From Chiloscyllium plagiosum (Eukaryota): a stretch of 64,000 nt of DNA. The stretch is from contig NC_057718.1 in assembly GCF_004010195.1 (NCBI RefSeq), positions 41,747,803-41,811,802 on the forward strand, read 5' to 3'. This document shows, one piece after another, positions 6,116 to 64,000 of the stretch; position 1 is the first letter of the stretch, and each line of letters opens with the position of its first letter. Under the pieces are notes generated by a model that did not search any database, was not told the origin of the DNA, and saw only the letters and a program-made list of their open reading frames with translations. The position numbers were made by a program, and so were the translations under genes.

Positions 6116-6328
6116 CTGGATCAGTGGTGCTGGAAGAGCACAGCAATTCAGGCAGCATCCGAGGACAGGCAAAATCGACGTTTTGGGCAAAAGCCCTTTC
6201 CTGATGAAGGGCTTTTGCCCGAAACGTCGATTTTGCCTGTCCTCGGATGCTGCCTGAATTGCTGTGCTCTTCCAGCACCACTGATCCAGAATCTGGTTTC
6301 CAGCATCTGCAGTCATTGTTTTTACCAC
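6116..6328 (+). mobile_element. Short Penelope-like pLTR insertion with inverted 5' copy (fold-back) and 15-bp TSD
   Basis: TSD cttaatgctgtgctt at 6101-6115 and 6329-6343. Arms 6114-6198 and 6207-6291 are reverse complements with 1 mismatch. Sequence closely matches the PLE terminus at 63304-63435. Confidence 0.9.
6198..6231 (+). ncRNA. Minimal type I hammerhead ribozyme motif (intact core)
   Basis: tc-CTGATGA(6201-6207)-A-GGGC-tttt-GCCC-GAAA(6221-6224)-C-GTC-ga. Palindromic ACGU stem III; predicted cleavage after C6228; stem I only ~2 bp. Confidence 0.75.
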
Positions 6329-6451
6329 CTTAATGCTGTGCTTGCCATTTCCCCATAGCCTTGCATATTACTTCTGTTTAAATGGTTATCCATTGCCATC
6401 TTGAATGCTTATTTGATCCTGCTTTCACTACACTTCCACGCTGAGATATTT

Positions 6452-7928
6452 GTATCATCGATAGTCACAGGTGAGGTGCCGGAAGACTGAAGGTTGGCTA
6501 ACATGGTACCACTGTTTAAGAAGGGTGGTAAGGACAAGCCAGGGAACTATAAACCAGTGAGCCTGATGTCGCTTGCGGGCAAGTTGTTGGAGGGAATCCT
6601 GAGGGGCAGGATGTACATGTATTTGGAAAGGCAAGGATTGATTAGGGATAGTCAACACGGCTTTGAGCGTGGGAAATCATGTCTCACAAACTTGATTGAG
6701 TTTTTTGAGGAAGTAACAAAGAGGATTGATGAGGGCAGAGTAGCAGATGTGATCTATATGGACTTCAGTAAGGCGTTCAACAAGGTTTCCCATGGGAGAC
6801 TAGTTAACAAGGTTAGATCTCACAGAATACAGGGAGAACTAGCCATTTGGATACAGAACTGGCTCAAAGGTAGAAGACAGTGGGTGGTAATGGAGGGTTG
6901 TTTTTCAGACTGGAGGCCTGTGACCAGTAGAGTGCCACAAGGATCGGTGCTGGGTTCTCTACTTTTTGTAATTTGCATAAATGATTTGGATGCGAGCATA
7001 AGAGGTACAGTTAGTAAGTTTGCAGATGACACCAAAATTGGAGGTGTAGTGGACAGCGAAGAGGGTTATGTCAGTTTACAACAGGATCTTGACCAGATGG
7101 GCCAATGGGCAGACACGTGGCAGATGGAGTTTAATTCAGACAAATGCGAGGTGCTGCATTTTGGGAACGCAAATCTTAGCAGGACTTATACATTTAATGG
7201 TAAGGTCCTAGGGAGTGTTGCTGAACAAAGAGACCTTGGAGTGCAGGTTCATAGCTCCTTGAAAGTGGAGTTGCAGATAAATAGGATAGTGAAGAAGGCG
7301 TTTGGTATGCTTTCCTTTGTTGGTCAGAGTGTTGAGTACAGGAGCTGGGAGGTCATGTGCGGCTATACAGGACATTGGTTAGGCCACTGTTGGAATATTG
7401 CATGCAATTCTGGTCTCCTTCCTATCGGAAAGATGTTGTGAAACTTGAAAGGGTTCAGAAAAGATTTACAAGGATGTTGCCAGGGTTGGAGGATCTGAGC
7501 TATAGGGAGAGGCTGAACTGGGTGGGGCTGTTTTTACTGGAGCGTTAGAGGCTGAGGGGTGACCTTATAGAAGTTTACAAAATTATGAGGGGCATGGATA
7601 GGATAAATAGACAAAGTCTTTTCCCTGGGGTCGGGGAGTCCAGAACTAAAGAGCATAAGTTTAGGGTGAGAGGGGAAAGATATAAAAGGGGCAACTTTTT
7701 CACACAGAGGGTGGTACGTGTATGGAATGAGCTGCCAGAGAAAGTGGTAGAGCCTGGTACAATAGCAACATTTAAGAGGCATTTGAATCTGTATATGAAT
7801 AGAAAGGGTTTGGAGGGATATGGGCCAGGTGCTGGCAGGTGGGACTAGATTGGGTTGGGATATCTGGTTGGCATGGAGGGTTTGGACTGAAGGGTCTGTT
7901 TCCATGCTATACATCTCTATGACTCTAT
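6452..7928 (+). pseudogene. 5'-truncated young CR1 (HER1-like) LINE with RT domain, frameshifted
   Basis: ORF 6494-7441 has the motifs PGNYKPVSL, QHGF, YMDFSKAF, VPQGSVLG, KFADDTK and DLGV. Frameshift near 7357 into RPLLEYC. Tail ctctatgactctat ends at ~7928. Confidence 0.95.
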
Positions 7929-9338
7929 TACATTGCCAAGCTATCCATTGTGTAAAATAGCTTTTTCTCATCTCATATTTGCATCTTTTGCAAAGCATTT
8001 TAAAACTGTGGCTTCTGGTTCTCAATCCTTTTACAAGTGAGCACCATTTCTCCTTATCCATTTTGTTGAGACTCCTCATGATTTTGAAAATGTCTATGTC
8101 ATCTCCTCTTAACATTTTCCTCTACAATGAAAGTAGTTCCAATTTCTCCAATTTTCCCTCATAACTGAAGTGCTTCATCCTCGGAAACATTTTTGCCAAC
8201 TTCAATAATGTGCTCACATCCTTCCTACAACATGATGCACAGAATTGTACATAATATTCCAGCTGAGATCTAGCTAGTGTCTTATTTAAGTTCATCACCA
8301 CTCCCCTGCTTTTGCACTCTATGCCCCTATTTATGAAGCCTGGAATACTGTATGCTTTATGAACAGCTTCTGCTATCTGCCCTCCCACCTTTGATGACTT
8401 ATGCACATATACACTCAAATCTCTCTGTACCTGTGCACCCTTGAGAAGTGTTACCTTTCTTCTATACCATTGTCTGCTACCTATTCATCCACTCAACCAA
8501 TGTGTCAAATTCCTCTTGAAGTTCTACACTCTTTTCCTCACAGTTTTCAACTTTTCAAAGTTTTGTGTCATCCACAATCTTTAGGATTGTCCCCTGCACA
8601 TCAAGATCTAGATCATTCATATATATCAGGAAAAGCAAGGCCTGAAAAATGACCATTAACCATAACTTTCAGTTCCTTATTCTTCAACCACTTTTGAATC
8701 TATTTGTGACTGTCTCTTGTATTCATTGACCTTTGACTTTCCTTAGAATGTCTGTTATATGACATTATAATTGAACACCTTCTGGAAGTCAACATATACC
8801 ACATCAATGGTGTTTGCCCCATTCAACATTTTCTGATATCTCTTCAAAATTTCCAGCAAGTTAGACATGGCTTTCCCTGAACAAATCAATGCTGATTCTT
8901 CTTAAGCAATCCATATCACTATGAAATCTATCTTGACTATTTGTTTTGAGAAGATTCTCCGCCACTGAAGTTAAGCTTATTGATTTGTAATTGCTAGGCT
9001 GATATTTACAACCCTTTTGATCAAGGGCATAATGTTTACAATTCTCTACTCTTCAGCCTCATTCCCACCCCCGCCTCCCAGCCCTCCAGGAATATTGAAT
9101 AATTATTGCCAGTGCCTCTACCATTTCCACTTCCAACTCAATCAATATTCTAAGATTCCCCTCATCTGATCCTAGTGTCTTAACATTTTTTTAAGTACCA
9201 ATAGCCTATCCAATGTCTCCTCCTTATCAATTTTGGAGGATTTCCTCCTTTTGCCATCATAGCCTAGGTACTATCTTTCTCATAGATGAAGACAGAATGC
9301 AAAGTATTAATTCAACATCTCATGATACATCTTGCCTT

Positions 9339-12569: not shown

Positions 12570-12712
12570 CCATTGGATAGGTACATGAAAAGGAAAGGTT
12601 TGAGGGATATGAGCCAGGAGCACGCAGGTGGGACTAGATGAGTTTGGGATTATGTTTGGCATGGACTGGTTGGACTAAAGAGTCTGTTGCAGAGCTGTAT
12701 GACTCTATGACT
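12570..12712 (+). mobile_element. CR1 3' tail inserted in the minus-strand LINE
   Basis: LDRYMKRKGL, then gcaggtgggactag and a tatgactctatgact tail. Confidence 0.8.
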
Positions 12713-14396: not shown

Positions 14397-14762
14397 GGTG
14401 GCACAGTGGCTCAGTGGTTAGCACTGCTGCCTCATAGCACCAGGTAACCGGGTACCATTCCAGCCTGGGTGACTGTGTGGAGTTTGTACATTCTTCCTGA
14501 GTCCGCGTGGGTTTCTGCTGAGTGCTCCAGTTTCCTCCTACATTCCAAAGATGTGAAGGTTAGGTGGATTGGTCATGCTAAATCACTCTGCAGTGTCCAG
14601 GGATGTGTAGGCTTGGTGGATTAGCCTTGGTAAATGCAGGGTTACAGGGATAGACAGGGGACGGGGGGCCTGGGTCTGGGTGGAATGTCATTTGGAGGGT
14701 CAGTGCAGACTTGATAGGCTGAATGGCCTCTATCTGCAATGTAGTGATTCAATGATTCTATG
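14397..14762 (+). mobile_element. HE1-like V-SINE
   Basis: A box tggctcagtgg, V-domain gtggagtttgtacattct...gtgggtttc, and a CR1-like tail ending gattcaatgattcta. Confidence 0.85.
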
Positions 14763-14764
14763 TG

Positions 14765-17280: not shown

Positions 17281-17841
17281 CGTTTCATGTCAAACAGAGG
17301 AAGCAGTATGCAATAGATAGGCTGAGCCATCCCACAATCCTCAGCTCTGCAGGCCCTCCACATCCATTTGGGAATGATGGTGGATAATTAAAGAACTCAT
17401 TGAGTACATTTAAAACTTGAGATGAATAGGTTCTTGAGTATCAAGGCGATCAAGGGTTATGGGAAGAAAGTGGGAGAATGGGGTTGAGAAACTTAACAGC
17501 CATGATTGAATGGTGGAGCTGAATCAATGGGCTGAAAAACCTGATTCTACTCCTTTGTCGCTTGGTCTTATGGTCTTAACTAACAGGGCAGATGCTCTAC
17601 AAATATCCCCAAGCGCAACAATGGGGAAGCCCAGCACATTGGTGCAAAACACAAGGCTTAAGTATTTTTATCCATCTTCAGCCAGTCATGCCAAGTAGGT
17701 GATCCCACTGAGCCTCCTCCTTATGACCCTAACATCACAGATACCAGTCTTCAGATTCATGTCTTTTTCAAAAGCCAGCATTAAATCTGCCTCCATCATA
17801 CCCTCAGGCAGTCAATGTTATCCCCTGTTGCACTTCATGTC

Positions 17842-17945
17842 AGCTCTGATGCAGGGTCATCTAAACTCAAAACGTTAGCTTGCTCTCTCTCTCTCCATGG
17901 ATACTGACTGACCTGCTGTGATCTCCAGCATTTGTTGTTTTCAGT
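17842..17945 (+). mobile_element. PLE pLTR remnant with degenerate hammerhead
   Basis: agct-CTGATGc-A-GGGTC..ACTC-aAAAC-GTT-agct (4-bp stem I), followed by the tail gacctgctgtgatctccagcatt. Confidence 0.65.
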
Positions 17946-18319: not shown

Positions 18320-18672
18320 GGCGGCGTGATAGCTCAGAGGTTAGCACTGCTGCTTCACAGTGCCAGGACCTGGGTTTGTTTCCAGCCTCGGGCAACTGTG
18401 TGTGTGGAGCTTGCGCATTCTCCCCATGTCAGCGTGGATTTCATCCGGGTGCTCCGCTTTCCTCTCACAATCCAAAGGTGTGCAGGTTAGGTGAATTGGC
18501 CATGCTAAATTGCCCATAGTGATCAGGGATGTGTAGGTTAGATGCATTGGTCAGGGGTAAATGTAGGATAAAAGGGTAGGGAAATGGGTATGAGTGGGTT
18601 ACTGTTTGGAGGGTCGGTGTGGACTTGTTGGGCTAAAGGGCTTGTTTCCACACTGTAGGGATTCTATGATTA
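18320..18672 (+). mobile_element. HE1-like V-SINE
   Basis: Head tagctcagaggttagcactgctgc, V-domain, and tail ctgtagggattctatgat. Confidence 0.88.
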
Positions 18673-24600: not shown

Positions 24601-25028
24601 GGCAAACTAGACAGATACATACATACATATATATTCAAAATTCATGACTCATTAAACAAGCCCTCCCAAATATCCCCCAAGAATGCATTATATATTACCA
24701 GTCTTTTAGGAACACATTACATTCAATGGGACGTGTCAATGAGTCCATGCATTTCTGTTAAACATTACTCCTTGCATGTGGCAAAGATTCTTTGCCTGTG
24801 CATATGACATCCTCAAAGTATTAAATGTAAGGAGTTACTAGGTTTTTTTATTACAAGAACATACTTACAAATAGAGTTGTTGATTGCAACGCAATGGGGA
24901 ATTGAATTTGGATTAGTGAATTCTGTGGCTCACACATTCAACTTTATATCTTAGCAATGTCACTCGGGTAAATCACATTTTCAGTGGTTCTTGTCAATAA
25001 ATTTACACACTACTATAATTCTTTGATA

Positions 25029-26277
25029 GAGTCAATAAGAGTGGTGCTGGAAAAGCACAGTCGGTCAGGCAACGTCCGAGGAGCAGGAGAGTCGATGTTT
25101 CGAGCATAAGCTCTTCATTAGGAATGTGGGTTGGAGGGTGCCAAGGGGACTGAGAGATAAATAGGAGGAGGGTGGGGCTGGGTATAGGTACATGAAATGG
25201 GGGGTGATTGACGGTGATAGGTCGGAGCAGAGAGTGGAGTGGAGAGGTTGGAAAGAAAAAGGATAGGCAGGACAGTTCAAGAGGGCGATGCTGAGTGAGA
25301 GGGTTGGATCTGGGATAAGGTGGGGGGAGGGGAGATCAGGAAACTGGTGAAATCGGCATTGATTCCATATCGATGGAAGGTCCCAAGGCGGAAGATGAGG
25401 GGTTCTTCCTCCAGGTGTTGGGTGGCTAGAATTTGGTAGTGGAGGAGGCCCAGGATTTGCATGTCCTTGGCGGAGTGGGAGAGAGAGTTGATGTGTTCGG
25501 CCACAGCAGTGGGGTTAATTGGTGCCTGTGTCTCAGAGATCTTCTCTGAAACATTCCGCAAGTTGGCGTCCTGTCCTGTAGAGGAAAACACATCGAGAGC
25601 ACTGGATACAGTAGATGAGGTGGTTGAAGGTGCAGGAAAATCTTTGCCAGATGTGGAAGGATCCTTTGGGGCCTTGGATGGAGGTGAGGAGGGGAGGTGT
25701 GGGCGCAGGCTTTACACCTCTTGCAGTGGCAAGGGGAGGTGCCAGGAGTGGAGGGTTGGTTGGTGGGAGACATAGACCTAATGAGGGAGTTGTGGATGGA
25801 ATGTCTCTGCAGAATGTAGATACATGTGGGAAGGGAAATATGTCTCTGGTGATGGAGTCTGATACATTGTATTCAGAGGTTGATGGGGTGGAACGTGAGG
25901 ACTGAGGCGTTTCTGTCCTTGCTGCAATTGGAGGAGTGGGGTTCAAGGGCAGAGGTGCAGGAAGTGGAGGAGATGCACTGGAGGACATTGTTCACCACGT
26001 GGTAGGGGAAATTGCGGTACACCTCACCTTCTGCCTTGGGACCCTCCAACCACATGGAATCAATGTCAATTTTACCAGTTTCCTGATCTCCCGTCCCCCC
26101 ACCTTATCCCAAATCCAACCCTCCAACTCAGCACTGCCCTCTTGAACTGTCCTACCTGTCCATCTTCCTTCCCACGTCTCCGCTCCACCCTCTGCTCCGA
26201 CTTATGCTGCCTGAACAGCTTTTTCAATGCTCCACTTTTTGACTCTGGTTTCCAGCGTGCGCAGTCCTCACTTTCTC
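25029..26277 (-). mobile_element. Penelope-like element (Neptune-type GIY-YIG), 5'-truncated with inverted 5' segment and 16-bp TSD
   Basis: TSD ctataattctttgata at 25013-25028 and 26278-26293. Relic protein CKRCKAC...FSCTFNHLIYCIQCSRC..LY..TGRQLAECFREDL. 26020-26200 is an inverted copy of ~25215-25400. Degenerate HHR at 25091-25125. Confidence 0.92.
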
Positions 26278-28769
26278 CTATAATTCTTTGATATTTCATT
26301 CAGTCACATGTCTATTTGACCTGCATTACCTGAAGCAACATGATAACGTATTCAGACTGTGAACTTTTTTTAAAATTATAAAGTATCAATGATAATTGAG
26401 ACATTTTCTGGTCACAGATCATTCATTACTTTTTTATATCAATGTCAATAAATTCTATTGTTGACTTGCATGAGAAATGTGAATGCTCAGATTTGCAATG
26501 TTCAGCAGCAATGTTGTTCATTGGAAGTCTGATGGCAGCAGATGATTGACTTTGTCACTGGCTCTGTGCTGCTCCTGAGTCAAATTCGGAAACTTCAACA
26601 CCACCATCCATTTATATTCAATAACTTCTGAACAATGGAAGCTGAAACAAAAGATGGAAGCTGGAAGTATTGGATGGCTTGAAGATCCTCTAATGTTCAT
26701 GGCATATGGATACAATATAGTAAGCAGGAAAATAGGAAGGAGCTATATTAGGATAGCTCACCAACATGCTCCAACCTCTGGGTAATTTTCCAGGGTGGTC
26801 TGGGAAACAGATTAGTTGCCCATTCCATTGCAGCTGTTTCATGCAATAAAGCCCGTTTTGCCTTGACATTGGGATTTTATTGGCAGTGAACCATACCCCA
26901 GCACATGGGGAGGCTGGCAGCACAAATGAGGTGTGTGGCCTTTCTGTGGCACACTAGGGGCAACTCTAACCAGAGGCTTGATGCCCCAGTGATGGTACCG
27001 TGAGGATGAAATTCCCCATGTGCGAATGGCCCTATGAAAGCTTTTTCCCTCCAAACCAAAGGATCCACTAGCTTTTGACCTCTAATTAATTATGCCTGTC
27101 CAGGCACATGGGAACACGTCCATATTAATGCATCCTCATGCTCATTTGCCTGCAGTGGCCACCTTCTGCATTGGCCTGCAGCATCAGGAACCTGCCTGCC
27201 ATCCTTAATAGCAGAATAAGCGTGGAGGTGGCCAATTAGGAGATGGTTGCTCCTGTGGGTGCTCTGTTGTGGAAAAGTTCAGAACCTCCAGCTAAGCCTA
27301 ATATCAGCATCCAGAAGCTCGCTGGTGAGTCCGGCCTGTTATTTCAGTCTAATATCTTGGGAAAGTGCACAGCATCGCAAATGGGGATGTCTGTCATTCT
27401 CTATACACACCAGATCTGCAGTGTGGACTCCACCCCACTGCATCACCATTTGGAAAGATCATGAAGGAAGGGAGTACTTCTTTCAGGGTGTGCCCTGTGC
27501 CAATAGAGTTATGACCCCTCAGTTTGTGCCTCCTGCCTGAATTTCAAAATCCAACACTCATTCCCTCCATAGGGTGCCCAATCCCTCTCCACCCAAAAAT
27601 ACCTAATTTGTCTGTCTCAAGTATCCATGACACTACTCTGTGGGCCTCCTTGCAATCCCAGTCATACCACTACTCTCTTCTGGTGTTATTGGGATTACAA
27701 CAGCAAGTCTGCCTTCCATCAAGGGGTGAAAGTCTCATTTTCTGCTTGTTTAAACTGCCCATATAGTGATATTGCTGTGCAGCAGGTTTTTGTTAAAGTC
27801 AGTCACGACCAGGCATGGGAACAACATACTCAGTCCTAACCCTTATTTTACTCACTGTAAAATTGTCAATGTTATTTGATTATTGGTGCTGTTCATTTCC
27901 TGGTCGGCTGTCTGTGAGAACTCTTTAATATGATTAGCTGCTTGACCAAAATGGAAGACATCACTATACCTTAATATTGGAAACATCCAATGAGCAGGAT
28001 TACAAAAATGCCTGTTTCCAACATAGAGATTATTCAACAGGTCAGTGAGATTTTCATTGAGGTCAGCTATGAATGCCCTAGCTAAGTTGTTGTAAATTGA
28101 CAGTGCCACATCACTCACTTCCCAGTTAATTTATTTTTTAATTACTTATGCTATCAAGATGCTAAATAACTGATTTCCAACAAATATGATTTCTTTTTAC
28201 CTGTTTTGTGCAGGGCATGGGCACCTGGGTATCTGTAAGTATGCAGATTTATACCAGTAAAATAATTGGCTAGATTTTTAACCTGAGAATTGTGTGGCAA
28301 AGCTGTCTTGGGCCTGAAGATGTCACTGAAAGGTGAGTTAATTTTAGTTTAATTTCCTTGTGTGCACTGCAACAAAATCCTGGGCCATTTTTGCCTTGCA
28401 GTATTTTTTTTCCTCCCCACACTGCACTAAATCCTTCCTAAATACTCATCTGATTACCAGAGATTATTCCTTTGGGTTTCGAAAACAGCCTCCCGCTGTT
28501 CAAAATACCACCATGTTGAGGTGCAAGATTGATGCGGCCCTGCAGTTAAAATCTCCTGTATCTCTTGTTGCGGAAAGCTGTGCAGTTTACCATCTGCCTC
28601 AACCCAAACATCTGCGCGAGTTAAATTTGGCTCTTTAATTGAAAAACAAAATCTCAGTTTAACTTTCTCTTAGCGAAGTCTACTGCAATGCAAATAATCC
28701 CACCACTCAAATTTCTAATCATAATAATATTTTCTCATTCCTGGCATTATCCTTGCAAATGATATTGTA

Positions 28770-29106
28770 CGTATCTAGGTTTATAATATCATGAGGGGCA
28801 TAGGTAAGGTGAATAGCCAAGGTCTTTTCACTAGAGTAGGGGAGTCTGAAACTTTGAGATGAGAGGGCCAAGATTTAAAAGGTTCCTGAGGGGCAACTTT
28901 TTCCAGAGAGTGGTGCATATATGGAATGAGCTGCCAGTGGTTGAGATGAGTACAATTACATTTAAAAGACATTTGGACAGTTACATGGATAGAGGGGTAT
29001 GGGCCAAACACAGGAAAATGGGACTAATTCAGCTTAGGAATCCTGGTCGGCATGGATGAGTTGGGCCAAAGTGTCTAATTCCATGCTTTACGACTCTATG
29101 ACTCTA
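28770..29106 (+). mobile_element. CR1 3' fragment
   Basis: RGNFFQRVVHIWNELP...FKRHLD; tail gactctatgactctat. Confidence 0.88.
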
Positions 29107-30839
29107 TTTTCCAGATTGATATGCCCAAAACCTCAAACCATGCTATTATTGTGGTCCAATCAGTGATTTGTATAAAGCCAACATTATTCATTTTCCCGAC
29201 TATAAAATCCAAAATTCTCCCTGTTTGTTTGAGTGACATTTTCTGCCTATCCTGATACTGACATGAATGTATTCAATTTTTTTTCACTGTTTATTGACAT
29301 CTTTCAAGACATGTCACTTAGATATACTTCTTGTCTTTACATCCCGTGACTATGACCTCTCACCTGTCCACATTAAATTGCACTTGCTAACTGCATGTCA
29401 ATTATACTAATCTGCCTCTTTCTGAAGTCTTTTACAGTCTTATCTCAAATTGTCAAACCATATACTTTTGTGACATCAACGTATTTAATATTGTGATCCT
29501 ATATCCAAATGTAGATTAGTTGACTATTTTGCTTCACTTAACTCTCCCACTTAGCCAGGCTCAACTTGAGGAACAGAGTAACATATTTCTCCTGGCCACT
29601 CTGTAGTTGCATGTGATGTTCATCATAACTGTTTTTCATACAGCAAGGTGTTGTTTGGTGGATGGGTCTGCAGGTGCATATCAGAGGGGAGGCAGTTTGG
29701 GATTTGGAACATGGAACATGGAACAAGAAGCTGGGGAAGAACCCACAACCTGGGAGGTAGCTTTTTCCTTTCTTTTAAGGTCCAGTCTAAATTCCATTTT
29801 TAGAGCTTCGCAAACATCTTACAAATATTATTTTTCCCTTGTTATTTTATTTGTTTGGGCCTGTCATTTCAGTCTTTTAACTACAAAACTGTGTGTTTTA
29901 ATGTCTTTCCATTATTGTGCTGATTGATTTCAATGCCATCTGAGTTCTCTATTTGACAATGTGTAGGCCATTCAACCCATTGATTGGTCAGATGTCCACC
30001 TTGATCCTTATTTTTATCCTTACTGAACTGTTTGGCTATTTTTGCTTTTTGTTCTAACAAAGGATCGACACTGGAGACAATAACCCACTTTTTCTCTCTG
30101 CATGGATGTTAACTTCCCTGCGGTGTTCACCTCTGTTTTTACTTCAGAATCCCAGCATTTGCAGTTTCCATTTCTTTTGTAGTTGCAAATGTCGGTTTTG
30201 GTTCACTGACCCAAGGATAGACTGAAAGACTTGATGGATGATAGAAAGTCATGAAAACTAAAACCAAAGGGAAATATAACATTTTTAAAAATTAAATTAA
30301 ACCAAGTCATTTGTTAATTGGAAAACGAATGAACAATTTAGCTCAAAAATGGAAGAAACCTCACTATGGACTGGATTAGTGTAGTTTCTGGTTTCCTTTC
30401 ACTGCCAACCAGAATGACTAACATAGCAGACAGCAAATTACATACATTGTTCAATGTTTACAGCAATTTCTTCCATCTAGAACTGGAGATGTAGTGATCC
30501 CATTCTGAATCTCACGATCCACCCCTCCACCTTCCTTGCACCATGGCAGAAATACGTTTTGTTTTAAAGAATGCGTTGCCAAGGTTTACTGAGCTTTATT
30601 GGACAGCATTCCCCCAGACCAGTGACTTCTACCACTGAAAGAACAAGATCATGGGAATATCATAACCTCCAGGCTCTCCTCTAAATTACACATCATTCTG
30701 GCTGTTCCTATTTATCATGTGATCCCTATCCTGGACTTCCCAATCGAGCACCAAACTGAGAGCCCCTCCAGCATAAGGAAAACTCTATTAGCACATTTCT
30801 CAGTTCAACTAGAGGTGGACAATAAATGCAGCATTGTAT

Positions 30840-31451
30840 GTAAGGTGACAGGATTGGTGGAGAGATTGGTTAATAAAGCATACAGTATCCTCATATTTTA
30901 TTAATAGGGACATCAAGAACAAGGTGTTTATATTGCACCTGAATAAGTCATTCGTTAGACCTCAGCTTGAGTATTGTGTATAGTTCTGGGTGATACACTT
31001 CAGGAATGATGTGAACTCACTGAAATGTAGAAGAGATTTACAATAATGTTTCCGGAGATGGGAAACTACAGTTATGAGGAAAAATTGGAGACACTGGGAA
31101 AAGGAGGAGATGAAGAGGAAAATGTAAAGAGGAAATCTGAAAGGAGTTTTCAAAAATATGAACAGTTTGGACCAAGTGGATTGGGAGGATCTGATACCAC
31201 TCATAAAAGTATTGAGAAGGAGAGGGCACAGAGTTAAAGAAATTTACAAAGGAAGCAAATGCAATGCAAGGAAAAGCTTTGTCTCACGGCGAGTAATTAA
31301 GGTCTGGAACACACAGTCTGGAAAAATAATAGTGGTAGTTTCAATCAAAGCATCCAAGAGGGTATTATATGGTTAAAAGAATAGAAACATTCTACACGGT
31401 TTTGAGGAAAAGGGAGGAGAACAGCATTAAGTCATAATGGTCATTTGAAGT
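30840..31451 (+). mobile_element. Old CR1 3' fragment interrupted by a PLE
   Basis: gttagacctcagcttgagtattgtgta (VRPQLEYCV) and RVIKVWN; the sequence resumes after the TSD at 31772-31786. Confidence 0.75.
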
Positions 31452-31771
31452 TTTGAATGTTGGTTTGTTCGCTGAGCTGGAAGGCTCATTTCCAGATGTT
31501 TCATCACCCTAGTGGGTAACATCTTCAGTGGGCCTCAGGTGAAGCACTGCTGAAAAATCCTGATTTCTATTTATATGTTTGGGTTTCTTTGGGTTGGTGA
31601 TGTAATTTCCTGGGGTGATGTTATTTCCTGTGGTGAAGTCACTTCCTGTTCCTTTTCTCAGGGGGTGGTAGATGGGGTCTAACTCGATGCGTTTGTAGAT
31701 AGAGTTCCGGTTGGAATGCCATGCTTCTAGGAATTCTCGTGTGTGTTTTTGTTTGACTTTTCCCAGGATGG
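31452..31771 (-). mobile_element. Penelope/Poseidon-type PLE 3' end with 15-bp TSD
   Basis: TSD atggtcatttgaagt at 31437-31451 and 31772-31786. Minus strand encodes ILGKVKQKHTREFLEAWHSNRNSIYKRIELDPIY, like a GIY-YIG C-terminus. Confidence 0.88.
31492..31531 (-). ncRNA. Minimal hammerhead motif (CpG-decayed stem III)
   Basis: cca-CTGAAGA-T-GTTACCC-acta-GGGTGAT-GAAAC-ATC-tgg: 3-bp stem I and 7-bp stem II with wobbles. Confidence 0.7.
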
Positions 31772-33582
31772 ATGGTCATTTGAAGTAGACACAATAGGAT
31801 GAATGGCCCCATCTGCATATAATTTGATGATAAGGTCAGTATCAACCAAATCCCCAGGAATAAATAAAATACTGATTCATAGCATCTACTCAGACAGAAT
31901 ATGAGAGTGATTGTGTTCTTTAGGCTGAGGTCTGCACATTTTTCTAGTAAAATGGGATCTATCTTTGATGCTCTTACCCTCCTGATTATGATCAAGTGAG
32001 TCCTGCTAGAAAACCTACAGTTGTTCAGCCTGCTAACATACATTATCAAAGTTAGCTTGTAAAACAATGATCATTTTGGTGAAGTACTGGTGATCCACAA
32101 GAGACCATCAAAACATCAAAAATAATCACATCAGAAGGTGATAAGGAAAGGGGAGGCAAAAAAGAAATGTGTGAAAAAGTGCCTCTCCTCTTATATTATC
32201 TGAAGGAACACAAAATCATAAAGCACATAACAACCATAAAAGGCCACTCTTTTGTTGGAAGTAAATACCACATGCTAATATATTTAACCAAAATTTCTCT
32301 CTTCATTATTTTATTTGAAGTTTAACTCACTTACATTTGTGGAAAATCTCCACCAGAACTTTTAATAATGTAATGGCAAGAGGCTCTTTAGGCAAATGAG
32401 ATACAGTTTACCTGCTAGTAATCCACAGTGATTCTCGTGGCATATTTATCAAAAACCTTGAGAGGACATGAAGGCTTTCAATCCAACCTAAACATATCAC
32501 ATGCATCCTTGCACTAAGGTTCGGAACATCCAAGGTCACATAGAATAATGTCAACTATAAAATGTTTTAATAGCCATGAACTGGATTTTACACACCCCCA
32601 ACATCCCCACACGCCCCCCTCCAAATGGCATGTTGTCAGAGTTACACAAATAGAATATGACACGTGGCTAACCATACCCTGACTTTCTACCCCCTCCCTA
32701 ACTCCATAAAACAATAGGCTGCTGGCTGCTGAAATAGGCACCCTGCCCACCAATTTTTAACAAAATGTTAACAGACAATTGAGCTTGTTAACAAGTGAAT
32801 TGGCCCAAATCCCAAAGATTACACTGTCTACACCATAATGCAGTCAATGTGGGCAGGCAGGCAGGGGTCAGAAGGCTGTGTCACAACCTTTATTTGAAAA
32901 AGGACGAGGGAAACAAATTATTTGTGGGGGTCGCCTGTGTACATCAAGGGTATTCTCCACTAACTCCTCTCCCACTCTCAGATGTTATCTCCTCCCCTTG
33001 TTCTCCTCTTCCTGGCCTCAAAAACCTGCCCTCACCCCAGATCCCACCCCTCTTGGAGTCCACAATCCATTCCCATCCAAAGCCTGGGGCCTAATTAGCA
33101 GTAGTGCTCCACTGCCTCAAAAACAGGATTCCCAATCACTGAGGGAAAGAAGTCTGATGCTCATCCCGAATTGGCTACCTGGAAAGTGGTGTGACTGTTT
33201 TTCCTTCCAGAGAGTGTGCATCCTGTACAGTTCATACCCAGTTTTGACTGTCAGACTAGATTACGTTTAGCTGCCAGTTTATTTCAGAGATTTACTGGAA
33301 GCCAAAGAAAAAATGCTGTAAAGCTAATATCGGGCTTACTGATAAATAAATGTGTTTCATGAAGTCAAATAGAGTCCATACAACTGAAAAGGCTCTATAT
33401 TTGATTTTGGGACAGGAGTTTGGTGGCCACACAGAAGCAGAAACTAAGACAAACAGATGTGTAATTTCCTGACATTAGTCTTCACACAGGCTTTCTGACT
33501 TTGTTTCGAAGGCAAGTGATTTTATGCAGGAGGGAGAAGATGACATCTGCCTAGCCCCTCAAATCTGAGGAATGATCAATAA

Positions 33583-33898
33583 TCATAGAATCATAGAATC
33601 CAAACAGTGTGGAAACAGGCCCTTCAGCCCAACAAGTCCACACCGATCCTCCGAAGATTATCCATCCAAAGCCATTCCCTGCTACTCTACATTTACCTCT
33701 GAATAATGCACCTAACCTATACATCCCTGAACACTATGGGAAATTTAACATAACCAATTTACCTAAACTGCACATCTTTAGATTATGAGAGGAAACCCAA
33801 GCAGACATGGGAGAATGTGCAAACGCCACACAGTCGCCCGAGGCTGGAATTGAACCCAGGTCCCTGGCGTTGTGTGGCCGCAGTGCTAAACACTGAGC
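33583..33898 (-). mobile_element. HE1-like V-SINE
   Basis: Minus strand: gctcagtgtttagcactg, B box ggttcaattcc, partial V-domain, and a (gattctat)n tail. Confidence 0.88.
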
Positions 33899-41429: not shown

Positions 41430-41635
41430 ATACTAGGGATGCTGGGAATCTGAAATAAATGCAGAAAATGCTGGAAAAGCTCCACAGAACCTGCGGAGAG
41501 TGAAGCCGAGTTAATGTCTCAAGCTGCTGATCTTTGATCAGAATTCTCCTAATGAAAAGCCTTTGACCTGAAAAATTAACTCTGTCTCTCCCTCCACAGA
41601 TGCTGCCTGACCTGCTGACCATTTCCAGCATGCTC
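41430..41635. mobile_element. Old PLE pLTR fold-back remnant
   Basis: Left arm gaaaatgctggaaaagctc...gagttaat is inverted relative to attaactctg...gacctgctgaccatttccagcat. A decayed cctaatgaa core lies between the arms. Confidence 0.6.
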
Positions 41636-42689
41636 TGCTGCTATAAATTGATCTGCATCTTACCCAAATACAAGAGTGGGAAATTAACCCATACATGACA
41701 TTGCATTACTGCTAATTATGTCCTTAAGTCATGTGAACCAGCAATGCGAAGTTATAGCTTTGCCTACTACTGATACAGAAAATCAGGTGTTGGACGTATA
41801 TGAGTAGATGCATAAAACTTCAGCTTCTCTCACACAAATTTCTGTTACAAATCTAAAATTGCCATTTAAAGTTGATGTGTTAACAGTTTGGCAATGATCC
41901 TTACTAGCGACATGAGTAATTGCTTTTGCTAGTTATATTCCAAAGTTAGTGCCTTTCATTACCTAGATATATCAAAGGATTGATAGCAGCAGCAGGCTGA
42001 AGTATTTTGAAGTATAGCATTGTAACATAGGATAGCCTTTGATTATTGCGCACACTAGTTATAAAAGGGTTACTGAATTTACTGCTCATACAATGGGTAT
42101 TGCAGACTCTAGTAATTGCAATTTCTTAATTGACAGGAAATGCATCGCACCAATGCAAAACAAATCAAAATGAGCAGGAACATTTTCAGTCCAACTATTC
42201 TCATTATTGAAGATGCATTTTAATTTTTGCTATCAACAGCAGAGTTAAGAATAAAAGGCTTATTCAGGAAAAAAAAAGAAAAACTGCAGTATATAACAGT
42301 AATCATAACCTCAAGCCACTTTAAACTGCTTTACAGTCAAAGAAGTTGATGTTGAAGAGTAGTTATTCAGAAAGAACAGATAGGAACTCGATTTGAAATA
42401 GTCTCAGCTGGATTGTACTGAAGGCATCTAAGAAACAGATAATTCTACTGGATTTATCAGAAATCCACTAGGGACTCAGATTCGCTGAGTTGACCCCAGT
42501 TCTTATCAGCTAGTCATCTTCAATTCACCTGTTGTCAATTTTACTAAATTTCAACACCCATTGTAAAAGTTCTTTTATCCCTCAATTTTCACACAGCAAA
42601 ATCCTAAAGACAACAATGTCGTAATGATTTGTTATCATTTGTTTTTAGCCATTTGTTGAAGAATACATATTAGGATGTCAGACAGAACT

Positions 42690-49877: not shown

Positions 49878-50015
49878 GCTTATATGATAAAACAAAGAAT
49901 TGCGAAAGCTGGAAATCTGAAACAGAAATTGCTAGAGAAACTCAGCAGGTCTGACAGCATCCATGGAGAGAGAAACAGAGTTAACGCATTGAGTCCACTG
50001 ACCCTTCTTCAGGAC
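49878..50015 (-). mobile_element. PLE pLTR remnant with degenerate hammerhead
   Basis: Minus strand: gtc-CTGAAGA-A-GGGTC-agtg-GACTC-aatgc-GTT-aac, then gatgctgtcagacctgctgagtttctc. Confidence 0.65.
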
Positions 50016-52654: not shown

Positions 52655-53390
52655 TGTTGAAGTAGGCCACTCAGCTGATTGAGCCCACCCCAACCCTCTA
52701 AAGAGCATCCCCACCTAAACCCATTCCCCTACCTTATCACTATAATCCTGCATTTCCAGCTAAACTGCACATTTTGGGCAATTTAGCATGGTCAATCACC
52801 TATCCTGCACATCTTTGGCCCGCGGGAGGAAATCCACTCAGTCAATAGACAATAAACAATAGACAATAGGTGCAGGAGTAGGCCATTCAGCCCTTCGAGC
52901 CTGCACCGCCATTCAGCATGATCATGGCTGATCATTCCTAATCAGTATCCTGTTCCAGCCTTATCTCCATAACCCTTGATTCCACTATCTTTGAGAGCTC
53001 TATCCAACTCTTTCTTAAATGAATCCAGAGACTGAGCCTCCACTGCCCTCTGGGGCAGAGCATTCCACACAGCCACCACTCTCTGGGTGAAGACGTTTCT
53101 CCTCATCTCTGTCCTAAATGGTCTACCCCGTATTTTTAAGCTGTGTGTTCTGGTTCGGCACTCACCCATCAGCGGAAACATGTTTCCTGCTGCCAGAGTG
53201 TCCAATCCTTTCATAATCTTATACGTCTCAATCAGATCCCCTCTCAGTCTTCTAAACTCAAGGGTATACAAGCCCAGTCGCTTCAGTCTTTCAGTGTAAG
53301 GTAATTCCAGTCACCAAAGACTGGAAATCAAACCTGGGTCCCTGGCACTGGGAAGCAGTAGTGCTAACCACCAAGCCACTGTGCTGCTCA
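52655..53390 (-). mobile_element. HE1-like V-SINE split by a young CR1 insertion
   Basis: The tRNA head lies at ~53310-53385 (tggcttggtggttagcactac...ggtttgatttcc) and the body/tail at ~52655-52844. cagtca occurs at both junctions. Confidence 0.75.
52845..53300 (-). mobile_element. Young CR1 3' fragment, second CR1 family, open ORF2 C-terminus
   Basis: ORF 52942-53271 reads EFRRLRGDLIETYKIMKG...FTQRVVAVWNALP...GIKGYG. The tail is (ctattgt)n-like. Confidence 0.93.
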
Positions 53391-54340: not shown

Positions 54341-54534
54341 AAACCAGAAACAAAAAACAGAAGTTGGTGGAAAAGCTCAGCAGGTCTGGCAGCATATGTG
54401 AAAAGAAATCAGAGTTAATGTTTGGGGTCTGGTTCTGAGGAAGGATCACCTGACTCCGAAACGTTAACTCTAATTTCTCTTCACAGATGCTGCCAGACAT
54501 GCTGAGCTTTTCCACCAACTTCTGCTTTTGTTTC
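54341..54534 (+). mobile_element. PLE pLTR fold-back element with central hammerhead
   Basis: Arms ~54347-54430 and ~54452-54534 are inverted (gaagttggtggaaaagctcagcaggtctggcagcat / atgctgccagacatgctgagcttttccaccaacttc). Confidence 0.85.
54431..54469 (+). ncRNA. Minimal hammerhead motif (core intact, bulged stem II)
   Basis: ggtt-CTGAGGA(54435-54441)-A-GGATC-acct-GAcTCC-GAAA(54458-54461)-C-GTT-aact. Stem I 4 bp; predicted cleavage triplet GUU. Confidence 0.65.
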
Positions 54535-54550
54535 CATTTGGATGCTAGTC

Positions 54551-54585
54551 CACCTGATGAAGGAGCAACGCTCCGAAAGCTAGTG
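54551..54585 (+). ncRNA. Minimal type I hammerhead ribozyme (best-formed copy), in a PLE tail spanning ~54535-54639
   Basis: cac-CTGATGA(54554-54560)-A-GGAGC-aac-GCTCC-GAAA(54575-54578)-GC-TA-gtg. Palindromic AGCU stem III; predicted cleavage after A54582; ATTAAA follows. Confidence 0.82.
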
Positions 54586-55213
54586 TGCTTCCAATTAAAC
54601 CTGTTGGACTATAACCTGGTGTTGTGTGATTTTTAACTATGTTTCTCTAAACATTATTGAGGCTGGCCCAATGAACATTTCAAAACTAAGTTTGTTATTT
54701 GATAACTAAAATATGAATGGTTATAGAATAAAGTTGGGTAAATGGAGTTAAGATATAAATAATTTATGATCCAATTGAATGATGGAACAGGCTAAAGACA
54801 AAGATTCACTTCTGTTCCATATTCTTAAGCAACATAGCCTCAGCACCAATCTTAAGTATTGATAGTATTTAGTTTCCATGCAATACTGGTGCATGCTACA
54901 GGAGTGTATACAAATTTCAGTGCATGAATAGCCCTTCCAGTGAAGAAACATCCAAGATGTGAGTCTGTGCAGTAAGGAAGTCACAAACCCAATTCTTTAC
55001 ATGTTATTGTGTTCGTAGCCATAAAATAAAAATATTTTACCTCTGTACTTGTGGCATCAATGAACCAATGTAGTTCATTGGACTATTTATAGTGCTTTTG
55101 TGGAGAAATAAATATCAGATCTCCACTAGCATGACTTCCCAACATGGTATGAGCAGGCAGTTCCTATTGATTTTCTGATAATAACTGACTAAAATTCTTT
55201 TTAAAATTGTTTT

Positions 55214-55553
55214 GGGATGGCACGTGACTCAGTGGTTAGCACTGCTACCTCACAGCGCCAGGGAACTGGGTTTGATTCCCGCCTTGGGTGACAGTCAGTG
55301 TGGAGTTTATACATTCTTCCTGTGTCTGTGTGGGTTTCCTCCGGGTGCTCCAGTTTCCTCCCACAATCCAAAGATGTGCAGGTGAGGTGAATTGGCCATG
55401 CTAAATTGTACACAATGTTCAGGGATGTGTAGATTAGGTGCATTAGTCAGTGGTAAATGTAGGGAAATAAGTCTGGGTGGGTTACTTTTTGGAGGGTTGG
55501 TGTGGACTTGTTGGGCCTAAGAGCTTGTTTCCAGACAGTAGGGAATCTAATCT
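55214..55553 (+). mobile_element. HE1-like V-SINE
   Basis: Head gactcagtggttagcactgct, B box ggtttgattcc, V-domain gtgggtttcctccgggtgctccagtttcctcccac, and tail aatctaatcta. Confidence 0.9.
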
Positions 55554-58102
55554 AAATTTTCTCATAGCTTGTTCAGTTTAACTTTGAGCGTAACCAATAT
55601 CAAGTTGTCAGTGGGGGCTGCTTTTATATTGTGTATGCAGGATTATGAAAAGAGGGAGTATAACATGCAAATTGGAGGGCTCCTGTGGTACAGTGATGGG
55701 TCCACTGAGTCATGAAGGGTTCGGGTCTCATCTGCTCTTGTGCTGTGTCACAGCATATCTGATTAACAGTATCCTAAAATGCAAATGCACATTGGTTCAC
55801 TTTCTGACTACAAAGGCAGTCTTATGAACATAGAGTAGCTATAGCATAAAAGCAGCTGGTGTAAAGCTCTACCAAATGAAGTTAACAGATTAAAATTAGA
55901 AGAAAATTTGAGTTGCTCAATCTGATGCCATTGATGCTTTATTAAAAGAAAACTGATTGCCTCATCAGTATTTTTCAATAATCAAAACTCCACAGCTAAT
56001 CAAAGGGCAGTATGGCTCCCAACTCAGAACAGAACTAAATATTACTCACTTTGCTATAGCATCAAATAGTAACAGATCTTACAGAATCATGCTTCTCACC
56101 AAAGGTTTGCAATATTTATTCCTTGAGGAAACCTAACTTCACAGCTAACGGTGGTTGAGTTCACAAATGGTTATAAATAGAGACTGTGTCATTCATGGCA
56201 GTGAGATATGATAAATATCTCTACTCTTGAGGCTGATCAGATAACTCACGATTGGAGAAGTCACAAATGAATTATGGTCAGTCTCATGAGTGGAGATATT
56301 CATCATATCTCACTGCTGACCACAACATAATCTATCTATGACACAGTATGTTTTTGACTTAAAAATGAAAACAATTTTAAAAAGAATTTTAGTCAGTTAT
56401 TGTCAGAAAATCAAAAGGAATTGCCTGCTCATATCATGTTGGGAAGTCATGCTAGTGGAGATCTGATGTTTATTTCTCCACAAGAGCACTATAAATATTC
56501 CAACCTACATTGGTTCATGGATGCCACATATACCAGAGGTAAAATATTTTTATTTTATGGCTACAAAAACAATAATGTGTAAATAATTGGGTTTGTATCT
56601 TCCATATTGCACAGACTCATATCTTGGATGCTTCTCCACTGGAGGGGCTATTCATGCACTGAAATTCTCTGTTACATAATGGTTGGCTTATACGGAATGT
56701 AAAATGATGTCTGAGAGCAGATTATCTACCGAAATTCTTAGTTTCAACTCATATGTTATCATAAGGGATGAAATGGGAGGAAATAATTTCTAGGAAGATT
56801 TCCTTTGTTGCTTTGTGTTATAAAATGATAACTGCATTCTTTAGTATGTCTATTTCTGACTTTTTTAAAGTTAGGAAATACTGGAAATATTAAAGAAATG
56901 CAACTATCTTTAAATAGGAGCTAACTCCTGGTCAATTAGCATGGAGTTATTCAAGCAAAAAATGAAATGGACACTGTAAATACTGCTGCCTGCATGCATT
57001 GTTGTAGTGCAAGGGTTATGCCATCACCAGAGGTACCTGACATAACTACAATAATCTGTCACTTACATACACATTCCATTTCACCCACATTTCCTAGTGT
57101 TTGCTTGCCTTTAATTTGGGTCTCCACACAATATTCCTGATTGAAGAGAGGCCATTCACAGGTCTCCAGTCCTGTGCACATACCTGTTTGTAATAGCCAC
57201 TGAGTGATGTGTGAACATTTCTACACTCGACTGGATTTTAGTTTTTTCTTCTTGTGGGAATGAAGGCTCTTGTTGCTTCTCCAAAAGGAAATCAAGACTT
57301 CTCCTTGTAAAGAATTGCACCATTTTGTGATCTGGCACAGTAATCACTATATCATCATAGTATTGGAAATTTGGGATATGAATTTGCATATGATAATCTT
57401 AACAAACTTGATATTCACTAAACTCTAGATTCGGTCTGTACTTCTCTATTTATATCTTTCTTTTAAGAAGGTTCTTAAAAGCTAGGGTTTTTTGACCTAG
57501 CATTTGACCTAGCTTTTCTCATACCTATATGTTTCGTGCCAAATATTGTTTGATAATGCTTCTGTGAAATGCCTTAAGATGTTTTATTGCATTAAAGATG
57601 CAATAATGCGAGCTAGTGTGTCTGTGAAAAGGTTAAGAATCAACTAAGCGATAGTCTTAATGACTGTTATGTCTAATGCTCATACGCAACTTGAAAAGTC
57701 AAAAAAATCAAACTCTACTATTAAAATACTTAAATGTAAATAGTTGCTCAGTTGGCATGGACAACTATGCATGCTTTTGCTTCTGTCTATTAAGAATGTA
57801 CTCTGATGTGTGTGATAGTATCAGCAAACCTGTTTAGGAAAGAATGTAGAGGAAAATATCAGGATTACAATGACATCACTTGCCAGTCAGAATATATTAT
57901 AGGCTTTTGGGTTAATACTGCTTCTGTATGTTCACAGTTCCAGAAAATGTGCGACCTAAATCAACAAGACCACAGATGTCAGAATCATCTTCAGCTACCA
58001 AGTCCTTAACAGGGGGAAAAAAAGTTTCTTTTCACGGGCAGAACTTTTATTTAGCTGGTTTGCAGAATCGTTTTGTCACTGCTCTCCTTCATCTCCCGGT
58101 AG

Positions 58103-58362
58103 GCTGAGCTGCCTGGTTGATCCGTCCAGGGGGACGGGTGTCAGACCAGTGCAGGTGTCAGTGGCTGCTAGTGAGTGATTGCACCATCAGCCTCCCACTG
58201 TGATCTATCATGCGGGCCAGGCCAGTGAAGAATCACAGCTACAGCAAGGTGCTGAGCCCAGCAACATATCATTAAACAAGGTTACAAGGAGCAGATTTGT
58301 TCCTATGATCAATCTGGTCAACAGTGGTTCCACTTTACTGTTTTTCAGCAAAGCGTAAACAG
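58103..58362 (+). other. Candidate 260-nt non-coding (5'UTR-like) exon with two short uORFs
   Basis: Acceptor ctctccttcatctcccggtag| and donor CAG|gtactg bound a GC-richer, non-repetitive island. All three frames contain stops. ATG ORFs at 58210-58275 and 58305-58358. Confidence 0.45.
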
Positions 58363-62350: not shown

Positions 62351-62950
62351 TGTTATGGATCAGCCCAGACCCCTCAAAACATTTGAAAAAAGTAGCCCAG
62401 ACTCTAACTTTTCTAGATATTTTAAGTAGGTGTGGAGTGGATATACCAGGAATGATGCAGCTGGCCCAACCACTTAGTTTTAAATAAAACTGAATTTATT
62501 TGTAAGATTACTGAATGAAACAAACAAGAGAACAGAACATAGAATAACTTAACCTATCTGAAAACCCAATAGATTATCCCAACTTAATGATGTTGTTCCA
62601 AATTCCTGCAACAATCCCCATAAACATCCGTTCAGGAGAGGTGACAGAGAGAGAGAGAACGAGAGAGAGAAAACGAGAGAATGAGAGACACAGAACCAGC
62701 ATGGAGCTGTTTCTTTGACCAGCAGCCTCAAAACTTGAATGCTTGCTAAAACCAAACCAAACCATACCAGAGAAAAGCTGAGCTGGGAGAACTGGCCACT
62801 CCCTTTTCATTATACAAGTGTTTTTTTTTTCAAAAAAGTAAAAACTTTTATGAAGTAGATAAACCCAGATATTTCAGAACCTGTGTCTTTATGAGCCCTC
62901 TGAAAAAAACCCAAGGATAACATAACCTTGCTAAAGGAGCAGCATTGTCA
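62351..62950 (-). mobile_element. Solo LTR, 600 bp
   Basis: Minus-strand termini TGACA...TAACA; flanks gagcat/tagcat (6-bp TSD, 1 mismatch); AATAAA on minus at 62495-62500; 3' part similar to 10075-10229. Confidence 0.7.
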
Positions 62951-63303
62951 TAGCATAACAATCAACATTTTTACTTTGTTAAGTATTTTTATATTGAGAT
63001 TAACTATGTTAAACAATGGAAATATTAGAATGTGTAGAAAAGTGCTATAAATAACAGGTAGTACATCACATTGTGGAACTGAATGCTTTACCAGAAAACA
63101 AATTCCCACGAAGATAAATTACATAACTGTTGTATCATCCATGAGAAGAAACTTTGATAGCCAGGACGTGTCGGGCGCTATTGGGACTATTTTCTGGATT
63201 GAGATATAATTCCTCCTTAAATTCCCAGTAAAACGCAACGCATAATGTTAGTAACTCACAAGGCTTCTTTATATTGGATATGCACAACATGCTGAATATT
63301 ATA

Positions 63304-64000
63304 GGTAAAAACAATGAGTGCCGATGCTGGAAACCAGATTCTGGATTAGAGTGGTGCTGGAAAAGCACAGCCGTTCAGGCAGCATCCACGAAGCAGGAAA
63401 ATCGACGTTTTGGGCAAAAGCCCTTCATCAGGAATAGAGGCAGAGTGCCTGCAGAGTGGAGAGATAAATGAGAGGCGGGGAGAAAGTAGCATAGAGTACA
63501 ATAGGTGAGTGGGGGTGGGGATGAAGGTGATAGGTCGGGGAGGAGGATGGGGGAAGGTAACACAGAGTACAATGGGTGGATGGGGGTAGGGATGAAAGTG
63601 GTAGGTAAGAGAGGAGGGTGGAGTGGATAGGTGGAAAGGAAGATAGGCAGGTAGGACAAGTCATGGGGAGGAGACCGCATCGGGAGCAACGGATACAATA
63701 AATGATATTAGTGAATGTGCAGGTAAAACTTTAATGGATGTGGAAGTCTCCTTTAGGGCCTTGGATGGAGGTGAGGGAAGAGGTGTGAGTGCAGGTTTTT
63801 CAATTCCTGCGGTGGCAGGGGAAGGTGCCAGGACGGGAGGGTGGGTTGTAGGGGGGCGTGGACCTGACCAGGTAGTCATGGAGGGTCTTTGCGGAAGGCG
63901 GAAAGAGGTGGGGAGGGAAATATATCCCTGGTGTAGGGGTCCGTTTGGAGGTGGTGGAAATGTTGTCGGATGATTTGGTTTATGCGAAGGTTGGTAGGGT
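63304..64000 (-). mobile_element. Penelope-like element (Neptune-type) 3' end, running off the window
   Basis: Minus strand reads TSIQGPKGDFHIH*SFTCTFTNIIYCIRCSRCGLL, then an internal deletion, then the pLTR with HHR ttc-CTGATGA-A-GGGC-tttt-GCCC-aAAAC-GTC (63400-63434). Tandem duplication of period ~71 bp at ~63488-63606. Confidence 0.9.

Follow-up and report, generated by a model that had tools for sequence, protein, structure and literature searches.

A stretch of 64,000 nucleotides from the shark Chiloscyllium plagiosum (assembly GCF_004010195.1, contig NC_057718.1, positions 41,747,803 to 41,811,802; referred to here as the window) contains nine hammerhead ribozyme motifs that lie in insertions of Penelope-like elements (PLEs). 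Eight of these sites had been proposed in an initial annotation, and all eight are present where it placed them; a ninth, decayed motif at 41549-41577(+) had been overlooked. Judged by their letters, the window motifs, most of them decayed, have the minimal type I hammerhead fold and belong to terminal repeats of four Penelope-like families. We consider it probable that they are best explained, as a whole, as parts of such repeats carried in short, decayed insertions whose ends likely mark the start of the template RNA. The coordinates of the insertions are collected in Table 1.

Searched with a descriptor of the minimal type I hammerhead, the window yielded four intact cores and seven matches with at most one core change; 20 block-wise dinucleotide shuffles yielded 0 and 0.5 on average. 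The core boxes are intact at 6201(+), 54435(+), 54554(+), and 31495-31528(-); a single core change is found at 63404-63431(-), where G12 has been lost at a CpG, and at 25094-25121(-); and two or more changes are found at 17846(+) and at 49983-50012(-), the latter with its second box destroyed. Both core boxes and the UH triplet stand in four of the eight window motifs and in the majority sequence of all four families. The G10.1-C11.1 pair of stem II, the extra base after A9, and a short stem I, here of two to four pairs, are also present. In a sample of the 3.56-Gb genome (88 ten-kb stretches taken at regular intervals along large contigs, with 832,156 bases other than N and the reversed sequence as control), 66 of 80 core-only matches were classified into families by script, and 8 of the 14 unclassified matches were family members by eye. 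The first stem II pair was formed in 0.95 of the 66 classified matches and was kept across families, and the palindromic positions 15.2/16.2 were found in 0.82 of them and in all family majorities.

The stem II and stem I pairings listed in the initial annotation can be read directly from the sequence, with limits: stem II of 54435 has only three contiguous pairs and stem I of family A only two. The palindromic stem III that it also ascribed to these motifs holds for the family majorities and is broken in 25094 and 31495, and core, stems, and palindrome are jointly kept in only three of the eight (6201, 54435, and 54554). The best-formed hammerhead of the window is 54554. When read from upstream, 6201 and 54435 fold with their own inverted arms into hairpins of -106.8 and -73.7 kcal/mol. 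None of the window motifs has a same-family partner nearby, and self-comparison revealed no tandem ribozyme units within the window; a heterodimer of 54435 and 54554 was considered and rejected by inference, as their stem III palindromes differ. An Rfam scan of the window at E<=10 returned 10 matches with no hammerhead model among them and microRNA hairpins below threshold only, so the hammerhead call rests on the descriptor and the literature. A hammerhead-like core with one mismatch at 1591-1622(-) is not a family member; it has no repeat partner and a poor fold and is probably due to chance.

Table 1. PLE-derived insertions and hammerhead motifs in the window. Clade names are given by motif and are putative; empty cells indicate that nothing was recorded.
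Feature	Position	Strand	Components	Target duplication
Family A (Neptune-type) head-to-head fold-back insertion	6114..6326		inverted short arm 6114-6198, direct tailed arm about 6198-6326; arms 85 nt, 99% complementary	15 bp, at 6101-6115 and 6329-6343
Intact minimal type I hammerhead	6197..6232	+	core 6201-6228, predicted cut after 6228; hairpin-locked when read from upstream	
Family B solo remnant, decayed hammerhead	17840..17945 (outer ends approximate)	+	core 17846-17876, two core changes	looked for, none found
Family A older copy	25029..26274	-	3' untranslated region (UTR), decayed hammerhead 25094-25121, inverted arm from 26019; coding remnant (broken reverse transcriptase thumb, linker, GIY-YIG fragment) at about 25355-26013	19 bp, 1 mismatch, at 25010-25028 and 26275-26293
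Family D (Poseidon-type) 5'-truncated copy	31452..31771	-	endonuclease frame end, 3' UTR with TATA-like box, hammerhead 31495-31528 (core intact, stem III palindrome broken, ATG at stem II start)	15 bp, at 31437-31451 and 31772-31786
Family B decayed remnant	41452..41640 (ends approximate)	+	hammerhead relic core 41549-41577, short inverted piece	
Family B solo remnant	49880..50015 (ends approximate)	-	hammerhead relic 49983-50012	
Family B head-to-head fold-back, hammerhead at centre	54347..54536		core 54435-54465 on +, boxes intact, weak stem II; arms 74 nt, 91% complementary	looked for, none found
Family C (distinct Neptune-type) short solo insertion	54551..54639	+	begins 3 nt before core 54554-54582	
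Family A copy	63304..64000, running off the window	-	GIY-YIG fragment 63668-63998, 3' UTR, hammerhead 63404-63431, tail	

Self-comparison of the window together with the genome sample sorted the motifs into four distinguishable families, in keeping with the initial estimate of at least four. Family A (6201, 25094, and 63404) lies behind a frame with a cysteine linker and a GIY-YIG endonuclease. Family B (17846, 41549, 49983, and 54435) is older, has its tail in common with A, and has a similar endonuclease end upstream. Family C (54554) is a separate linker-bearing family whose thumb and linker share 26% identity with those of A across 186 residues. Family D (31495) is without the cysteine linker, its thumb running straight into GIY-YIG (seen at locus L246), and carries an ATG at the start of stem II. 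The Pfam GIY-YIG model matched upstream of the repeat in A (E 3.5e-4) and C (E 3.9e-4), both just below the curated cut-off, and GIY-YIG motifs are visible in the B and D frames; putative pieces of a reverse transcriptase (RT) resembling that of telomerase, namely a DKG motif and thumb fragments, were also found. In the window itself, a Pfam scan of 14 frames found no PLE domain and only RT pieces of long interspersed elements (LINEs). The pseudo-long terminal repeat (pseudo-LTR, or pLTR), optional tail, inverted arm, and target duplication of endonuclease-bearing (EN+) PLEs are all present, and the proposal that the motifs belong to Penelope-like pseudo-LTRs is supported by their placement beside GIY-YIG frames in A, B, C, and D. 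By motif, A, B, and C would be Neptune-type and D Poseidon-type. The first name is used because Neptune is the linker-bearing PLE clade reported in vertebrates (10.64898/2026.07.22.740005). The linker was seen in A and C, only the endonuclease end was seen in B, and a cysteine linker is also carried by Nematis.

The positions at which insertions end relative to the ribozyme are of most interest. Each copy was located by its tail, which lies downstream of the cut, and then compared by alignment with long natural copies; the end set comprised 395 rows after duplicate removal, 17 rows bordering runs of N were left out, and 317 copies belonged to families A, B, and C. Relative to the first core base, 100 of these 317 copies have their 5' ends at -10..-1 and 50 at 0..9, with 13 at -20..-11 and 12 at -60..-21. 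Among the 145 copies at least 93% like a reference, 45 ends lie at -10..-1 and 5 at -60..-21. The mode of the family A ends is -4, and family C insertions consisting of a single arm (solos) peak at -9..-7. A genome-wide pattern for the fold-back seam at the front edge of the ribozyme gave 2,112 matches (about 70% A1 among the matches listed), against 13 when shifted 20 nt upstream and 97 when shifted 14 nt downstream; the three patterns are not matched for subfamily breadth, CpG content, or exposure to N runs, and symmetric seams are counted twice. An AT-rich box lies at -35 in A, -34 in B (the second-best window), -37/-38 in C, and -46/-47 in D, about 31 nt ahead of the end peak; it is a clear TATA box in C and D and a variant in B. 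The pile-up of ends in the Neptune families likely marks a transcription start just ahead of the ribozyme. No peak at the cut site was found in the 317 Neptune copies, where 4 ends were seen against 6.1 expected from neighbouring positions; a small Neptune cut-site peak may exist genome-wide.

Family D ends differently. In this family, whose AT-rich box lies 10 nt farther upstream, 72 of 121 copies reach more than 100 nt upstream, and the short ends are shifted upstream (10 versus 11, compared with 15 versus 150 in the other families; p=4e-5). Among 60 unselected D loci, seven inverted copies end at most 60 nt from the core or beyond it on the downstream side; in two of these both arms start at the first base after the predicted cut, and in two more one arm does. 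A search with one such cut-site seam as the query returned 222 candidates, of which 40 were scored, and all 40 span the seam; an ordinary D seam used as a control was spanned only by itself and by two loose matches of 40. Sixteen cut-site seams, the query included, were examined. Fourteen were blunt and exact and two had 1-2 extra letters; the insertions have different flanks, and 12 have a target duplication of at least 8 bp. Microhomology does not explain this seam, because the element has no palindrome centred there. The seams likely reflect repeated use of the 3' product of the ribozyme as a template, and D insertions that start at the predicted cut likely record, as far as genomic copies can tell, ribozyme cleavage of the element RNA in the germline. 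A literature search found no paper mapping PLE insertion ends to a ribozyme cut.

The structure of the head-to-head insertions bears on how these ends were made. Each motif is preceded by the element 3' UTR and followed by two alternative 3' ends, which lie about 35 nt from each other. In head-to-head insertions the two arms reach one of these ends each, and a single target duplication encloses the pair. The optional tail is present on exactly one arm in 42 of 45 A-type pairs and in 13 of 14 pairs of family C; the set includes loci chosen as fold-backs, and the A2 and B rows, which mix families, were not used. Fold-back pairs usually lie inside a single target duplication of about 10-16 bp, and many of their seams use short microhomologies. 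Priming at two sites would be the simplest reading of this anatomy, because two priming sites and extension on both strands have been shown in vitro for an element of the green anole (PMC11167929); for the shark the step is inferred. At L240 a chimeric fold-back combines an inverted family C arm, a family D piece, and a family C tail, which suggests switching between RNAs of what would be different clades. At L093 a private short duplication is common to both fold-back arms, and it may stem from use of the same template RNA, from copying of one arm from the other, or from later conversion.

The motifs are abundant across the genome. The core-only scan of the 88 stretches found 80 intact cores against 9 in the reversed control, and with stem filters 80 stretches (757,319 bases) gave 41 intact cores against 0. 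The density is one intact core per about 12 kb, or about 300,000 genome-wide by extrapolation if the sample is typical, and the high density first noted for the window (one motif per 8-9 kb) thus extends to the whole genome. Exact patterns were matched 16,037 times for the family A ribozyme, 27,240 times for the A1 tail, 29,309 times for the C tail, and 3,860 times for the D tail. Because family D was misplaced when the nine motifs were simply aligned, pairing was scored with the core as the anchor. In the 80 core-selected matches stem II pairing was 0.84-0.89 versus 0.33 in the reversed control, and in the 66 classified matches it was 0.95, 0.91, 0.92, and 0.91 with a motif's own partners versus 0.90, 0.60, 0.47, and 0.26 with cross-family partners. 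Pairing is maintained with different letters, but across four source lineages, which amounts to a handful of independent events rather than a per-copy signal. The covariation claimed in the initial annotation accordingly stands as pairing kept between families and not as a signal among copies.

The dispersed copies appear to decay freely. Core positions outside CpG are changed in 2.7-8.7% of copies (medians 1.5-10%), like downstream positions (medians 4-14%), while G12, which lies within a CpG, is changed in 13-32%; the free core position 7 differs between subfamilies (32-51% in A2, B, and D). A core that decays at about the rate of its flanks fits selection on the fold in the source elements and none in the dispersed copies. 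Core and palindrome are both intact in 32/75, 18/38, 1/22, 19/50, and 9/55 full-length motifs, and only three pairs of same-family, same-strand neighbours occur among the 66 classified motifs of the 88 stretches. A tail continuing into an open reading frame (ORF), a setting that would allow cis dimers, gave 549 exact matches versus 27,240 tails, and most of the 30 such loci that were viewed are short tandems. In family A tandems (L283-L312) the internal seam differs per unit, even within one array (L297), and these unequal seams point to repeated template jumps. The genome thus holds a stock of motifs made up mostly of lone, truncated, neutrally decaying copies, and the dispersed copies are likely inert for want of a promoter or a partner.

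We propose the following scheme. The element RNA would start a few bases ahead of the ribozyme. The element enzyme would nick both target strands and prime reverse transcription at two internal sites about 40-100 nt past the cut site. Both cDNAs would then run off the 5' end of the RNA, giving a fold-back where they are joined to each other and a solo where the target receives one of them. For the Neptune families we would expect a template that was likely uncut, with ends at the predicted transcription start, some 31 nt downstream of the AT-rich, TATA-like box. For the Poseidon family the ribozyme would likely have cut a minority of the templates already, and both arms would start at the first base after the cut. 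The fold would be under selection in the source elements, with the dispersed copies likely inert. On balance, we lean towards regarding the insertions as a fossil record of template RNA ends, in which Poseidon copies would register in vivo cleavage in the germline, with the 3' product copied onto both target strands, and Neptune copies would register run-off at a start ahead of the ribozyme.

Other processes could produce a pile-up at the front edge of the ribozyme. An RNA fold or a bound protein might stop the reverse transcriptase there, or the endonuclease might nick its own AT-rich site; the family A peak at -4 coincides with the outer end of stem I and falls on an ATT triplet, the motif cut by the anole enzyme in its own repeat (PMC11167929), and short microhomologies are found at many seams. 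However, family C has no ATT triplet and its solos still peak at -9..-7, the ends in D move upstream together with the TATA-like box, and copies stop after the fold has already been copied rather than before it. We regard this explanation as doubtful. The main rival for the D seams is that a cut-site palindrome arose once and spread as a non-autonomous unit that rebuilt itself by two-site priming, in which case a single event would be recorded. The identity of the junction in 14 of 16 places is what such a unit would leave, and 27 of 28 arms share a letter found in 67% of unselected copies, though the query selects for that letter. Against a single origin, the 28 arms have no private letter in common, and their likeness is 0.895 within insertions versus 0.901 between them; extra seam letters occur in two places, near-cut junctions are found in a second subfamily too (L351 and L356), and even one founding palindrome would still require one end exactly at the cut. 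A single origin is in our view unlikely.

For the head-to-head palindromes as a class there is a published model, self-priming on antisense RNA, proposed for rotifer elements (PMC3846280). Both strands occur among the RNA reads, and the private duplication common to both arms at L093 would suit it. The model does not predict that both outer ends should lie on the two sense-strand priming sites, that exactly one arm should be tailed, or that solos should share the 5' boundary. Priming at two sites on sense RNA has been shown in vitro (PMC11167929); we consider the antisense model improbable here. Least probable of all, in our judgment, is the strong form of the repertoire suggested in the initial annotation, in which the dispersed copies would work as a very large set of self-cleaving RNAs and process host transcripts. 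The roughly 300,000 extrapolated intact cores, the presence of the repeat in RNA reads, and the 549 tail-to-ORF matches, whose short tandems could form cis dimers, are compatible with such a repertoire. The neutral decay, including that of G12, the frequently broken core and palindrome, the scarcity of same-family neighbours, and the lack of a pile-up of RNA ends do not bear it out. Monomers of this type were uncleaved and dimers weakly cleaved in PMC4209133, and one of nine Xenopus dimers was cleaved in the survey 10.64898/2026.07.22.740005.

A number of observations weigh against the fossil-record reading, or weaken it, in addition to the unevenness of the seam-pattern counts described above. 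The cut-site excess in unselected D copies is small (3/121 versus 0.73 expected, P=0.04), the short D ends are scattered over -26..+7 without a sharp peak, and the sets that document recurrence (40 scored, 16 examined) were selected by the cut-site junction itself. The upstream box of family A departs from the canonical TATA box. Of 131 solo copies tested, only 18 have a target duplication of at least 10 bp (with 4 control matches), so that most solo 5' ends rest on alignment alone and their exactness is weakened. No intact full-length ORF was seen, and the interiors of young copies read N; frames of 900-1300 amino acids that were at first candidates for intact ORFs are in fact N runs, which leaves activity of the families unsupported. 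One single-cell polyA run contained 1,223 reads on the family A end, on both strands, with no pile-up of read ends, although a 3' single-cell design and mixed subfamilies cannot reveal a start or a cut; the second of the two raw RNA runs gave 0 reads and is no test. In addition, insertion in vitro did not need the anole ribozyme, at whose cut no RNA reads were found to end (PMC11167929).

The motif class itself is known. The shark motifs resemble the metazoan PLE hammerheads of Cervera and de la Pena 2014 (PMC4209133) in their core boxes, the extra base before stem II, the G10.1-C11.1 pair, the short stem I, the loopless palindromic stem III, and the pseudo-LTR position, as well as in occurring mostly as single dispersed motifs of many families per genome. 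The initial annotation took the repertoire of this lineage to be poorly characterised; the class has been described, and one cartilaginous fish, in which retrozyme-type hammerheads are present, is included in the 2026 survey (10.64898/2026.07.22.740005). What the present analysis adds is a map of where insertions end around the ribozyme, a mapping we did not find in the available part of PMC4209133. The density is unusually high: about 4,000 motifs are given there for coelacanth and 9,000 for Xenopus, with another descriptor, compared with about 300,000 by extrapolation in the shark. A literature search found no shark-wide count; Lunse et al. 2017 and the supplements of 10.64898/2026.07.22.740005 may contain some.

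The closest functional parallel is PAc, the green anole Poseidon (Frangieh et al. 2024, PMC11167929), in which two internal priming sites give an optional tail and both target strands are extended. PAc and shark family D both have an ATG where stem II begins, and the PAc ribozyme is protein assisted. Unlike PAc, for which no RNA ends at the cut were seen, family D has genomic copies that start there, and head-to-head insertions, found in the shark, are not discussed in the main text on PAc. Inverted-pLTR insertions (Arkhipova 2013, PMC3846280; Craig 2021, PMC8557442) have the same inverted 5'-truncated arm, single-end tail, and target duplication, and a TATA and an initiator were noted in the rotifer pLTR in these papers; the shark units differ from them in being ORF-less stubs, in numbering tens of thousands, and in having seams fixed at the ribozyme. 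Animal non-LTR retrozymes (PMC7229834, 10.64898/2026.07.22.740005) likewise carry type I hammerheads in short PLE-related repeats, with up to 120,000 copies in axolotl (PMC7229834). Unlike these, the window motifs are not in tandem arrays, and the minority of short tandems found elsewhere have unequal seams, unlike rolling-circle copies.

The role of PLE hammerheads has been called unclear (PMC8557442). If the fossil-record reading is true, the D insertions would be genomic evidence of in vivo cleavage by a PLE hammerhead, and two-site priming would explain the inverted structure with one tail. The reading makes exact, family-specific predictions, namely, that in three families capped RNAs begin a few bases ahead of the core and that in the fourth the cut product serves as a template. 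For the inverted insertions typical of PLEs, two-site priming could also be tested against antisense self-priming on the sequences of this genome.

Several further features of the window were noted. The fold-back hairpin at 6173-6234 matches the Rfam mir-722 model with 38.4 bits (E 4e-4; threshold 81) and with visible likeness of letters. It is conceivable that a fish microRNA was born from such a fold-back; none of the papers listed in a literature search names mir-722. Long inverted arms at 54913-55213 and 56368-56666, 90-95% complementary, surround both a second hairpin (56198-56316) and a short interspersed element (SINE) at about 55224-55549; the whole, 54913-56666, looks like a non-autonomous DNA transposon. 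A 316-amino-acid fragment of a LINE reverse transcriptase (Pfam RVT_1, E 2.5e-30) lies at 6491-7441, which we take to be of CR1 type, and related 3' ends are found at about 4285-4742, 7461-7931, 12599-12712, and 28772-29110. Copies of a tRNA-like SINE, presumably the shark HE1, occur at 14401-14760, 18329-18670, 33584-33863, 53323-53384, and 55224-55549.

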